Assembly: GCA_951406725.2 (NCBI GenBank)
Contig: OX597827.1
Span: 50,220,001-50,284,000, forward strand
Source of the DNA: Octopus vulgaris
Taxonomy: Eukaryota
DNA: 64,000 bases
Reading direction: 5' to 3'
The notes beneath the pieces were generated by a model, which did not search any database, was not told the DNA's origin, and saw only the letters and a list, made by a program, of their open reading frames with translations. The position numbers and the translations under genes were made by a program. Of the stretch, positions 11,324-26,480 are shown piece by piece; positions within the stretch are counted from its first letter, which is position 1; every line of letters starts with the position of its first letter.

Positions 11324-11877
<554 letters not shown>

Positions 11878-12744
11878 AAATCAGGCATTCTAGCTTCTAG
11901 CTTCTATCACTCTGTCAGTCTGAATGTTAAAGTCCCACAACATCTTATATTTCTTACTTTCTAGTAATTTACTAGGTTCGTGTTCACACTATTTATCAGG
12001 ATGTGCAAATTCTAGCTTTCTACATAGCTCCCAGTGGATTACTCTCCTTAGATTGTCATGGCATTTCTTGTATTCTTTCTGCGCCAGCATGCTGCTTTCA
12101 CTTACTATGAGTAACATTTTTGACCTGCATAATTGAGAATTTACCTGGTTTTTGTCTATCTTGGCTTTTATCCAATTAGTCCTTAATGCTTGATCTTGTG
12201 CAGCTACTAACAAACTTTCTGTCTCCCTTTTCAGCTTCCCTTTCTGCAACCATAACCATGTCTCATTACTACTATTTGCTGCAACTATCTTTGGGAATCC
12301 ATCATGCAACACCTCCTGCCAGTCAGATCATTTCTGTTCTTTTTTCTGGTTTTTAAGTTCATTTGGGTTTTTGGCTTCCCTATGTCTTTCTTCACTACTA
12401 CCTGTATAAGAGTTTATATCTACTCTAGCTAACACCACGCAGTCTTCTACTGATATTAACCCTCTTCTGCCTTCCTTTCTAGGTAGATATAATCTTGCAA
12501 ATCCTGTCCTTCGGTGGAGTCCTCCATTCATATTGAATTCCGTCCTAGTTCTTCTGTCTAGCTTTGCTAATTCAGTTTTTGTGCAGTCTACAAAAGCTGC
12601 TGAGTAACTAAGTAACGATACTGCCCGAGTATTTTCAGCCTTTACTAGATTCCGACTATTTAGCTTTGACTTCATTAGCTTCCTGCCTCTTCTCAATTTT
12701 CGTTTTCATTTCTGTAGTTAGAACTCTGTCAGATTCTAATACTC

Positions 12745-13718
<974 letters not shown>

Positions 13719-13728
13719 TTATTATTAT

Positions 13729-14325
13729 TATAAGGAATAATAAATCTCTGAACCATGTATAAACAGTAGCTGCACGACAATGTGAAGTATATTTGCCACT
13801 TAAATGTGGCTAACCACTAAGGGTGGATGCTACTGTAGCTTGTAGCCCCAGGAGAACATCTTCTCCAGCTGGCTATTGACACACTCTCTGTGCCCTATCA
13901 GTATTTGCAAAGGGAAGCCATTCTTCCCATCGTCGACGTGACGTGATACGCACGGACTCGGGTTTCTGAGTATTTACCCGTCGTCAGCGCACGACAATCA
14001 CCGGTCTTCGATGCGAAGGGGTCCCAATGCAAATACATATATCCTTTTTCCAGTGCCGGAAAGTCACTGATCTCGAAAAAGTGTAAACAAGCAATAATAA
14101 ATCTCTGAACAAAGTATAAATAGTAGCTGCACGACAATGTGAAGTATAATTGCCACTTAAATGTGGCTAACCACTAAGGGTGGATGCTACTGAAGCATGT
14201 AAACATTGTTTTGTGCATGATCTGTGCCTGTAAACATTGCTCTTTCACATTAGGGGATGGATTTATCTGTTTAGGGTAATTTTTTGAGACAACGCCGTCA
14301 CCGAGTTGTCTGCATGTAATCATTT
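13729..14325 (-). mobile_element. Structured non-coding element with 109-bp direct repeats (period 357 bp) inserted at (AAT)n
   Basis: Direct repeats 13736-13844 and 14093-14201 (about 6 mismatches by eye) and a long imperfect hairpin at 13901-14036. Strand inferred from similarity to the 9495-10052 end. Confidence 0.7.
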
Positions 14326-14344
14326 ATTATTATTATTATTATTA

Positions 14345-14412
<68 letters not shown>

Positions 14413-14414
<2 letters not shown>

Positions 14415-14905
14415 GAATGTACACACAACAGTTGGAAAAAATCCTAACATGAGGCTGCAACAAGTAACCTTAGATGCCAAGAGCCCTCTTAGTATTCTTG
14501 CTGACTCTAATACAACTGTTTTCTGGAGTACAGCTTTGGTTTTTGGTTTGTATTTGTACAAGCTGCCTCCAAGTCTCACCCAGAGACCGCAAGAGACAAC
14601 AAGTTAGAAGTTCAAGTTAGTGCTATGACTAGGTTACCATTTATTTAGTTTTGCACAGAGTATTGCTCTAGAGAATGTCTATCAAAACATAAGTAAATTA
14701 GAATTTTGTTTTAAAAGTAACTTGATTACAAAATGATAGTCTGATGTTAAGATGACACTAAAAAGTATTTGCCATTATGTACATTTAAAAGTATTTTGAT
14801 ATTGTTTACGGATTAAAATAGTCTTGGGATTACATAGACAATATTTTACGTAGAATATAGGCAGTTCTCACGAGCTCTATTTTTTGAATTTCTTCCACTT
14901 TTGGA
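14413..14905 (-). mobile_element. Further R4/Dong-type 3' end fragments
   Basis: LQKTVVLESARILRGLLAS. 14555-14650 is homologous to 13065-13160, and PKVEEIQKIELVRTAYILRKILS occurs near 14840-14905. Confidence 0.7.
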
Positions 14906-24252: not shown

Positions 24253-26480
24253 TTGAAATTCTATAAGTTTTCAAAGGCAAATAAGCATCGACAGCCAGCA
24301 AGCCAAGAGTACTACAAAAATTTATTACTCTCCATGTTGGAAAATAATATTTACTATGAGAAGATAGTACAATACACCCACAGAAGACACTTAAAAACTT
24401 ATCCTCCTTACTTCAAATACATGGAAAGGGCCTCACTAAAAATGAAATTGACTATTTATCCACTTTTAAATACAGACCTAGTCTATTCTACGGATTACCT
24501 AAAATACACAAAAATCTACATATTTGTAAAGCTTGCAAAGTTTCTTCAAGTCTATGCATTAATGTTCCTCCCACTACTGACCTCAAACTGAGACCCATCA
24601 TTGCAGGCCCTGCTTGTGAAACCCACCGTTTGAGTAACTTCCTCGACATCTTACTCAAACCGTTTTTAAAATATGTGAAAAGCTTCATCAGGGATGACTT
24701 AGACATGCTTAACCACCTACCAAAGACAGTAAATGAAGGAACCCTGTTAATATCATTCGATGTGGTGAATTTGTACACCAATACCCCACACGAGTATGGT
24801 ATAAAATCAATCACCTTTTGGTTAGAAAAATACCCAGAAGAGATCCCAGGACGCATAAACCACAGGTTCATAATCGCAGCACTGAAATTCATCCTACTGA
24901 ACGACTATTTCATGTTCAATACAGTTCACCATCGACAAAAATGTGGAATTGCAATGGGAACCCGAGCTGCTCCAGTGATTGCGAACCTGGTAATGGGTTA
25001 CCTAGAACTTAAAATTTACCAATCATCACTACAAAAATATGGCACCTCATTTTATTGCTATTTAAAGGAGAACTGGAAGAGGTATTTGGAAGATTGCTTT
25101 ATACTTTGGAAAGACAGCAGGGACAAACTCCTCGATTTCAAAATAATGCTTAACAATATTAATAGCAACATACAATTCACCATGGAGCAGAGCAGTAAAC
25201 AATCCCCTTTCCTTGACATCCTAATTAAAATAGTCAATAACCACATCGAAACAGACACCTTCTATAAACCCACAGATTCTAAACAATACCTATTATTCAA
25301 CTCATGCCACCCCAAACGCATAAGAATTAATATACCAAAAATAATCTGTGCCATAGTTTCGGACACCTATACTCGTGAATGAGGACTCCTTGCATTCAGA
25401 TCAATACTAATCAAGAGACATTACCCAACATCATTAATAAATGATGGTATTAAACGAGCTAAGGAAATAGATATACGAAAATTAAGGGAAGTCAACTGAA
25501 ATACGACACCAGATTTTAAAATACTCCCATACATCTCCACACATAACCCTAGAAACAACGAAGCCTTCAACATTATCATCCAAAATTTACCCATCTTCGC
25601 ATGAGATAAAACAATGAACAAAATTTTAGACTCACAAAATTATCAAAAGCAAAATGCAACCTAAATCATTGAAAAAATATTAACCAGTGCAAGACTACAT
25701 CCATTAGCAACGGAACCAAAAGTGAAAAAATGTGGTTGACCTAACTGTGGTACATGCCCCCACCTTTTGGAGGGTTCAGAGTTCCATTTTAAGCAAGGTG
25801 AAATATTTAAGATAATATCAAATTTCACCTGTGCCTCGGAAAATCTAATCTATGCCATTACATGCTTAGGGTGTGGTAATCATTATATTGGCCAAACAGG
25901 AATATCACTCCGTCGAAGAACCACTCACCACATAGAACAAATCCGTCACCCACAATACAGACAGATACAGGTCAGTGAATACAGAGAAAGGTGTGCTAGG
26001 AACCTTAATCTTAATTTCCTAATTTTCCCCTTCTATCAATGTTCACAGAATAACTCAGTACAGCAAAGAATGAATAAAGAGGCAACTTTCATCAATAAAT
26101 ATCTTCTACAACTCAATATGAATACATAACTTAAAACAGAACACTACTAACCTTTCAATTAATACCACCCATACATCCTATAACCCATTCATATTACAGA
26201 ACTATATCTACTATAACTGCACAAAATCCAGAACTACTTACCTCCCTTACACTTAAACTTTTTACCCAGGAACTAGTAGATTCGACACTGTTCGGTAATC
26301 GGTGTGTATTCAAAGCAGTAATCAGTAATTTTACGAAACCAATATGCTTTCGAATCTCTTTAACAATTCACAATAATGACTTTTATTACTTTTATTCCTA
26401 CCTCAGTTCATCTAATTGTATAAATCTATCGTTACTTTTCATAAAAAGCCATTATTTTTTTGTGCATTTTCGCTTATTTT
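24253..26480 (+). mobile_element. Penelope-like element, RT plus GIY-YIG endonuclease, pseudogenised
   Basis: FYGLPKIHK, LRPIIAGP, SFDVVNLYTN, QKCGIAMGTRAAPVIANLVM, RYLED (DD mutated), PFLDI, YKPTDSKQYL, CGTC, and NLIYAITCLGCGNHYIGQT. Several stops and frameshifts. Confidence 0.95.

Follow-up and report, generated by a model that had tools for sequence, protein, structure and literature searches.

We consider it very probable that positions 13732-14201 of the window, the 64-kb stretch of octopus DNA analysed here, hold an aged, 5'-truncated 1.3-unit copy of a dispersed 357-nt repeat family that is likely a fossil non-LTR retrozyme. Tandem transcripts of this family would cut themselves, as double hammerheads, into monomers. 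These would likely form circles, and a Penelope-like (PLE) reverse transcriptase would likely copy them into microsatellites rich in A/T or CA.

A dispersed family of circularly permuted units

The window consists of repeat-rich animal DNA, and a SINE flanking the element suggests an octopus host. The element and its immediate neighbours are as follows.

13732..14201, minus strand (the sense strand): candidate retrozyme insertion, 1.32 units of a circularly permuted 357-nt repeat, 5'-truncated at ~14201, with a fixed 3' end at ~13732-13736
13718..13731, no strand: (TAA)n microsatellite, the insertion target, adjoining the fixed 3' end, with another (TAA)n run at 14324-14414
13390..13717, minus strand: 3' fragment of a LINE-like element
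14202..14324, minus strand: foreign sequence at the 5' junction, of which 14244-14324 matches a different dispersed repeat, LINE-like and carrying a duplication of ~207 nt within it

As a sequence-only reading of the window had described, there are direct repeats; they cover 13732-13844 and 14089-14201, each 113 nt long, 94% identical and spaced by 357 nt. Also as described, a 10-mer occurs three times and there is no ORF, the frames touching the element reaching at most 79 aa and all starting with TTG. No tRNA gene was found at the element. The same reading had extended the element to 14325. The segment 14202-14325 proved to lie outside the family, and no other listed match passes query position 473 (14201) by more than one base.

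A first look at the 2.8-Gb assembly gave 4110 candidates for retrozyme subfamily A, 40 of which were scored, and 1658 for subfamily B, which is ~65% identical to A and was traced from a diverged neighbour in locus L011. Divergence is 4-5% in A and about 20% in B, and the unit measures 342-359 nt (32 full units). The 71 A loci fetched included six duplicates of one place, leaving 65 distinct loci. Mapped on the tiled unit, A copies are circular permutations of at most 1.62 units (none of the 65 loci holds more) and the duplicated part differs from copy to copy. The direct repeats are thus the overlap of a 1.3-mer and not LTRs. Taking them as the LTR-like bounds of a retrozyme is mistaken, as other copies repeat other parts of the unit; the architecture is that of tandem non-LTR (animal) retrozymes rather than the LTR-bounded plant type. 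The broader proposal of a retro-integrated ~1.3-mer of a structured, retrozyme-like unit is supported by the dispersed permuted copies and by the insertion footprints described below, and the recommended check for circularly permuted 357-bp units among genomic copies did find permutations, with a variable duplicated part.

Repeats within an A copy diverge by 7.65%, about as much as separate copies do (7.89%), and both repeats of the window copy are ~4-5% off the family majority, like other copies. The ribozyme region is bridged by contigs from four organisms, one run of which may be the source sample. There is next to no probability that the element arose by a single tandem duplication, or that it is a common satellite whose folding is accidental. 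The isolated repeats do fold no better than chance (z about -1.5), but thousands of dispersed candidates on many contigs, the varying permutations and a covarying ribozyme rule out a single duplication event.

The family is a non-coding tandem unit in the 150-450 bp range of non-LTR retrozymes, with one type I hammerhead per unit and many dispersed or tandem copies; it is without LTR, PBS or PPT, the latter two as judged by eye. The type III hammerhead inside fixed LTRs that marks plant LTR retrozymes is not what is found here, the ribozyme being of type I and outside this copy's repeats.

A type I hammerhead on the minus strand

The sequence-only reading had seen no recognisable ribozyme and had placed an unclassified one inside the 109-bp repeat. 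It modelled the wrong strand: the actual motif is a canonical type I hammerhead on the opposite strand (14001-13943), in the spacer rod.

13943..14001, minus strand: type I hammerhead motif, with stem I 14001-13997/13947-13943 and 13993-13988/13954-13949, core CUGANGA 13987-13981, helix II 13979-13968, GAAA 13966-13963, helix III 13963-13956 and predicted cut 13955/13954
13967..13980, minus strand: C10.1·A11.1 mismatch (13980, 13967) closing helix II in place of the usual G-C, conserved in A and B
13956..13963, minus strand: helix III, palindromic over 8 nt in the family (ACCCGGGU in A, ACUCGAGU in B)

The layout comprises a 4-bp helix II, a short helix III and a stem I of 6 bp plus 5 bp. All core positions are present (C3 U4 G5 A6 N7 G8 A9, G12 A13 A14, A15.1-U16.1, H17). 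This was the only match to a hammerhead descriptor on either strand of the window, and only 1 of 3000 dinucleotide shuffles of 13729-14325 gave any match. Covariance model R1 scores the window motif at 87.9 bits, by construction, since R1 was built from these copies. Rfam gave no hammerhead match in the window at the gathering score and two chance matches at E up to 10, a miss that reflects model coverage and not an absent core. Among unselected A copies the core bases are the majority at 53-63 of 60-63, except at the variable N7, and a third retrozyme variant in the genome carries N7=A. The pattern of intact core, helix II and helix III occurs at 122 genomic sites, against 0 for the reversed control; a metagenome pattern scan for the hammerhead gave 0 matches.

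The base of helix II departs from the usual form. A G10.1-C11.1 pair is "highly conserved" in hammerheads according to PMC4209133 (in part), which is not to say universal, whereas most A and B copies have C·A. Unselected A copies carry C at 10.1 in 50 of 60 and A at 11.1 in 63 of 63; in some copies a C-to-U change at 10.1 restores a U-A pair. The mismatch may lower activity.

Pairing was assessed across both subfamilies. Alignment A1, its rows chosen by a regular expression requiring an intact core, left out 3 of 53 ribozyme references (two L011 duplicates and one truncated). In 48 distinct A and B rows, 93.4% of cells in the hammerhead pairing do pair, versus 8.6-60% in slid controls. Stem I pair 11-53 is G-C in 21 rows and A-U in 18, and helix III pair 42-45 is C-G in 25 and U-A in 19 with the palindrome kept. 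The open-ended helix I, helix II and helix III of a type I hammerhead are found with covariation, although A-versus-B covariation amounts to few evolutionary events counted many times, and the count of pairs altered at both positions did not exceed what shuffles give (174 of 500). Judged by its sequence, the motif in the window copy's family is a canonical type I hammerhead and not a new ribozyme class.

In the window copy the palindrome is broken at 13958, by a base common to 3 of 50 aligned pieces. With a single ribozyme and a broken palindrome, this copy is probably inactive.

The unit as a whole folds better than 100 of 100 shuffles (z -4.9 on the plus strand, -4.6 on the minus strand), and the rod folds more strongly on the minus strand (z -6.4 versus -4.5). 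RNAalifold, run on 22 of the 32 full units, recovered stems I and II and the four-way junction described below. The long basal rod was not recovered, so its base is without support across subfamilies. Folded as circles, A units score strongly (z -4.7 to -5.7) and two decayed B units weakly (z -0.2 and -2.2). A role for the triple 10-mer was rejected, since B lacks the link between junction and stem I that it makes in A.

Predicted activity as a dimer

Canonical metazoan type I hammerheads have a 6-bp helix I, a 4-bp helix II and a 1-2-bp helix III with a palindromic loop, are active as dimers, and avoid self-cleavage in monomeric circles (PMC4209133, in part). The family layout fits this description. 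The subfamily B core and its compensatory changes, including those in the palindromic helix III, point to a dimer-active ribozyme.

In nearest-neighbour energies, which ignore the tertiary core, the blocked fold of the A monomer reaches -21.6 kcal/mol versus -9.8 for the active one. The double hammerhead reaches -40.3 (A) and -45.1 (B) kcal/mol versus -43.2 (A) and -43.8 (B) for two blocked monomers, placing it within ~3 kcal/mol in A and slightly ahead in B. Two monomer-active folds give -19.6 (A) and -28.6 (B) kcal/mol, and a dimer of the window copy -26.5 kcal/mol. The helix III duplex itself amounts to -14.9 (A), -10.7 (B) and -1.3 (window) kcal/mol. Because the predicted monomer pairs the 5' strand of helix II with helix III and the palindrome allows an active dimer, cleavage would probably need two units, and a monomeric circle would thus be protected. 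Of 9 predicted retrozyme dimers from Xenopus, 8 showed no cleavage in bioRxiv 2026.07.22.740005 (in part), which counts against activity here.

None of the datasets in which the family occurs is catalogued as RNA, so they speak neither for nor against expression. A fall in contig depth was considered as a cleavage 5' end. Depth drops 4- to 12-fold from bins 13897-13923 to 13924-13950 in four runs guessed to be RNA. This sign was rejected because the same step occurs in four larger runs of uncertain type and loose ends from a diverged subfamily lie at 13931. The motif of the loose-end contigs had 0 matches in the genome. No pile-up of 5' ends was seen at the cut site, with 8 of 65 at unit 130-158 in a biased sample.

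An active retrozyme is expected to hold two intact consecutive ribozymes (bioRxiv 2026.07.22.740005, in part). No such pair, at unit spacing on one strand, occurs among 100 listed of the 122 intact-pattern sites, nor is there one in the longest array seen, and the window copy has one ribozyme. This lowers the case for activity today and leaves family membership as it stands. The longest array (L072:3581-5500), from B and decayed, runs for four-plus units before a partial unit and then an inverted piece; it has five same-strand ribozyme motifs spaced 354/354/358/253 nt, one of the five with an intact core. A same-strand ribozyme pair on contig C17 was rejected as an array, being a 1.5-kb duplication. 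With no A copy above 1.62 units, no unit-spaced intact pair and a B array in which one core of five is intact, the source locus was not found by this pattern-based search, which may have missed a source array.

Insertion footprints

The sense-strand 3' ends of the 65 distinct A loci fall into two classes, 37 at unit 350-12 (class 1) and 21 at 305-316 (class 2), with 7 elsewhere. Two fixed 3' ends ~44 nt apart, beside TA, TAA or CA microsatellites, were thus seen at 58 of 65 loci, some of the searches having favoured these ends; loci chosen by ribozyme pattern alone fell into the two classes in 8 of 10 cases. Both classes are also present in subfamily B. Flanks were TA at 29 loci, CA at 7 and TAA at 4. 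The 5' ends are scattered, 17 of 65 loci carry an inverted 5' piece, and target duplications of 9-12 nt occur in a minority (e.g. L010, L118).

The RNA of class 2 ends in CACA; that of class 1 has an AU-rich end next to TA or TAA. A long (CA)n run lies after 6 of 21 class-2 ends and after none of the 37 class-1 ends, which suggests that copying was primed through target-RNA pairing. The target 3' end would, as seems fairly likely, pair with the AU-rich or CACA stretch and prime copying beside the four-way junction.

Many copies read through the predicted cut site, indicating that the template was not a linear monomer. We lean towards a circle, rather than an uncut multimer, as what the template would have been. 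In 31 copies with a duplicated part, 18 non-majority variants are shared by the repeats, against 5.0 expected from between-copy pairs, and the majority base of upstream and downstream repeats differs at no position. Such sharing could arise if copying went round one circle a second time; it could also come from gene conversion or from a tandem master that had been homogenised.

Partial tandems, an optional 3' tail, 5' inversions and microsatellite targets, the features of non-autonomous PLEs, are all found in the family. It could be asked whether the hammerhead is a weak passenger in an orphan PLE terminal repeat (pLTR) or a non-autonomous PLE, spread by linear uncut partial-tandem transcripts without a circle. 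We think this unlikely. It would suit the stop of A copies at 1.62 units or less and the predicted block of the monomer, such tails and inversions are also described for partial tandems of PLEs (PMC8557442, in part), and vertebrate retrozymes were derived from pLTRs in bioRxiv 2026.07.22.740005 (in part). However, the B array holds four-plus units, the ribozyme is canonical and not of the minimal PLE type, and repeats within a copy share variants (18 versus 5.0). Nor was an ORF-bearing copy found among the A loci scanned for RT/EN motifs, where two PLE remnants are separate from the unit: an RT fragment (L007) and a GIY-YIG fragment (L020), considered as parts of the element, were rejected as insertion sites or neighbours. 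The pLTR alternative and the retrozyme reading overlap in everything except the circle.

Mobilisation of the same RNA by a (TAA)n-associated LINE, presumably R4/Dong-like, instead of a PLE is improbable. The window copy does lie in (TAA)n beside a LINE 3' fragment (13390..13717), which we take to be an R4/Dong restriction-like-endonuclease element and whose 36-aa frame had no Pfam match, and a piece of this same LINE-like family is joined at its 5' end. Such a piece near the 5' junction was seen at 1 of 65 loci only, though, TA (29) and CA (7) flanks outnumber TAA (4), and the two 3' ends match the tail pattern of a putative local PLE.

Several other features of this neighbourhood were observed. 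LINE-like fragments at 12500-12885, 13046-13310, 13390-13717 and 14535-14904 are interleaved with (TAA)n/(ATC)n, forming a microsatellite insertion hotspot. Within 14195-14325 a 14-nt motif occurs three times around the LINE-like piece, with microhomology to the truncated 5' end of the retrozyme, as if copying had restarted on the template several times while the element was inserted. At 11324-11876 lies a (CTA)n-type trinucleotide array of 550 nt whose GC skew is strongly negative.

A conserved four-way junction at the 3' ends

13764..13835, minus strand: four-way junction, sense-downstream copy, with one 3'-end class falling within it (~13781) and the other ~28-32 nt past it
14121..14192, minus strand: four-way junction, sense-upstream copy from a second pass through the unit

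The proposed folding of each repeat into a four-way junction was recovered in the minimum free energy structure of either strand, but is weak in isolation (z -1.3 to -1.65). The C-G to U-G change noted between the repeats is a wobble on the plus strand but a mismatch on the sense strand.

Conservation was examined in alignment A3 (37 rows, chosen from 62 references), obtained from A2 by removing two antisense rows and one with a rearranged end. On the sense strand A and B share the junction, and one pair of its third hairpin has changed in a compensatory way (C-G in 22, U-A in 12). The first hairpin is rebuilt in a shifted register, the loops differ freely, and the closing helix is conserved with 100% pairing, a score inflated by row selection.

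Both 3'-end classes lie in or just after the junction, which is thus likely a handle, or candidate signal, for the reverse transcriptase and not a ribozyme. An unclassified ribozyme in the 109-bp repeat, i.e. the junction itself, is very improbable. Conservation between A and B, with its compensatory pair and shifted-register hairpin, is what could be cited for it. Against this, a known ribozyme already accounts for unit-length processing, the loops are free to differ, the full pairing of the closing helix is biased by row choice, and the ends are two alternative 3' ends with microsatellite homology, as for priming and not cleavage. Nothing indicates catalysis by the junction.

Candidate mobilising enzyme

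For the retrozyme, the reverse transcriptase would in our estimation quite probably come from a GIY-YIG PLE. GIY-YIG elements are abundant (15116 and 6136 candidates in two genome searches). One of these families, young and a putative PLE, keeps a 781-aa frame open in 16 of its 148 matches; its copies stop at (TA)n, either at a single point or behind a 38-nt tail (4 of 12 shown). PLEs are described with a 30-40-bp tail, inverted insertions and partial tandems, and the tail and inversion signature of EN+ PLEs is matched both by this local family and by the retrozyme ends (PMC8557442, in part).

No retrozyme homology to PLE flanks or 3' ends was found in 25 GIY-YIG and 55 further loci, a small sample of the 15116 and 6136 candidates, except at two loci with an inserted retrozyme. 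Model R1 had no match in the PLE loci, the best non-family match (E=0.0027, L170) being a different repeat. As these loci showed no sequence similarity, the PLE partner is inferred from the signature.

Other sequences at these loci resemble hammerheads. In the 781-aa family (L156-L181, e.g. L158 and L163) a minimal hammerhead-like motif, read by eye, lies ~70-110 nt before the 3' (TA)n, seemingly with U3/A8 for C3/G8, a 5-bp helix II and a palindromic helix III. Tandem boxes resembling CCAAT and CRE elements lie in the 3' UTR of this family. A decayed hammerhead-like core also occurs in another dispersed repeat, which lies in the left flank of L020, ~1.4 kb from the element, and at L170:12-71, and is probably a separate PLE terminal repeat or retrozyme family. 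In the window itself, 25635-25994 (plus strand) is a fragment of a GIY-YIG (Neptune/Nematis-like) PLE with two stops.

Tentatively, and with more doubt than confidence, we propose that the family records, in fossil form, how a PLE with which it shares no sequence reverse-transcribed a ribozyme circle by the rolling-circle route. The junction would be the cis signal recruiting the PLE enzyme, priming by microsatellites would start at two fixed points, with TA/TAA using the AU-rich stretch and CA using the CACA within the junction, and a monomer-silent C10.1·A11.1 hammerhead would protect the circle. If true, this would identify how animal retrozymes hijack PLEs and would open the question to direct tests.

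Comparison with known systems

The comparisons below hold for the portions of the cited papers on which they draw. Mobilisation of retrozymes by PLEs from circular RNA is a hypothesis in the literature (PMC7229834, bioRxiv 2026.07.22.740005), and non-LTR retrozymes are known from corals, mussels and amphibians (PMC7229834). A literature search found no description of a cephalopod retrozyme, of which the supplement of PMC7229834 may list examples; the squid genome paper counts 235 Rfam hammerhead matches in its available text. The octopus family adds a lineage to the known non-LTR retrozymes and shows a natural hammerhead variant missed by Rfam. Its dispersed copies keep mechanism-bearing footprints: two 3' ends, target-matched priming, cut-site read-through and shared within-copy variants.

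Plant LTR retrozymes are also non-coding, self-cleaving, circle-forming and non-autonomous (PMC7229834, bioRxiv 2026.07.22.740005), cleavage and circles being predictions here. They differ in having a type III hammerhead in LTRs, PBS/PPT and 4-bp target duplications, whereas the octopus ribozyme is of type I and the repeated part varies.

EN+ PLEs and their non-autonomous derivatives share the partial tandems, the optional 30-40-nt 3' tail, the inverted 5'-truncated pieces, the microsatellite targets and a hammerhead with palindromic helix III (PMC8557442, PMC4209133, bioRxiv 10.64898/2026.07.22.740005). Unlike them, the retrozyme has no ORF and its hammerhead is canonical, not minimal. Similarity to PLE 3' ends was reported for 24 of 57 Xenopus families (bioRxiv 10.64898/2026.07.22.740005), whereas the octopus unit has none in the loci examined.

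Metazoan non-LTR retrozymes, especially the ~350-390-bp repeats of Mytilus galloprovincialis, have the same 150-450 bp non-coding tandem unit with one canonical type I hammerhead and no LTR, PBS or PPT; they too are highly self-paired, with GC below 50%, target duplications of more than 4 bp when present, and PLEs in the same genome (PMC7229834). In some mussel circles the fold blocks the ribozyme, as predicted for the octopus unit (PMC7229834). Unlike mussel-type retrozymes, the octopus copies are mostly dispersed, hold fewer than two units and are 4-5% (A) or about 20% (B) diverged.

The axolotl HHR_Amex2 / Rtz_353 and newt satellite 2 have the same 2-bp helix III with tetraloop in a ~350-nt unit and are more efficient as dimers, a preference predicted for octopus (PMC7229834). 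The mismatch at the base of helix II is U·U in Amex2, which cleaves (PMC7229834), versus C·A here, and the octopus is an invertebrate host. Taken together, the octopus family fits the structural definition of non-LTR retrozymes in PMC7229834, with the mussel repeats nearest to it in size and axolotl Amex2 nearest in the design of the ribozyme.
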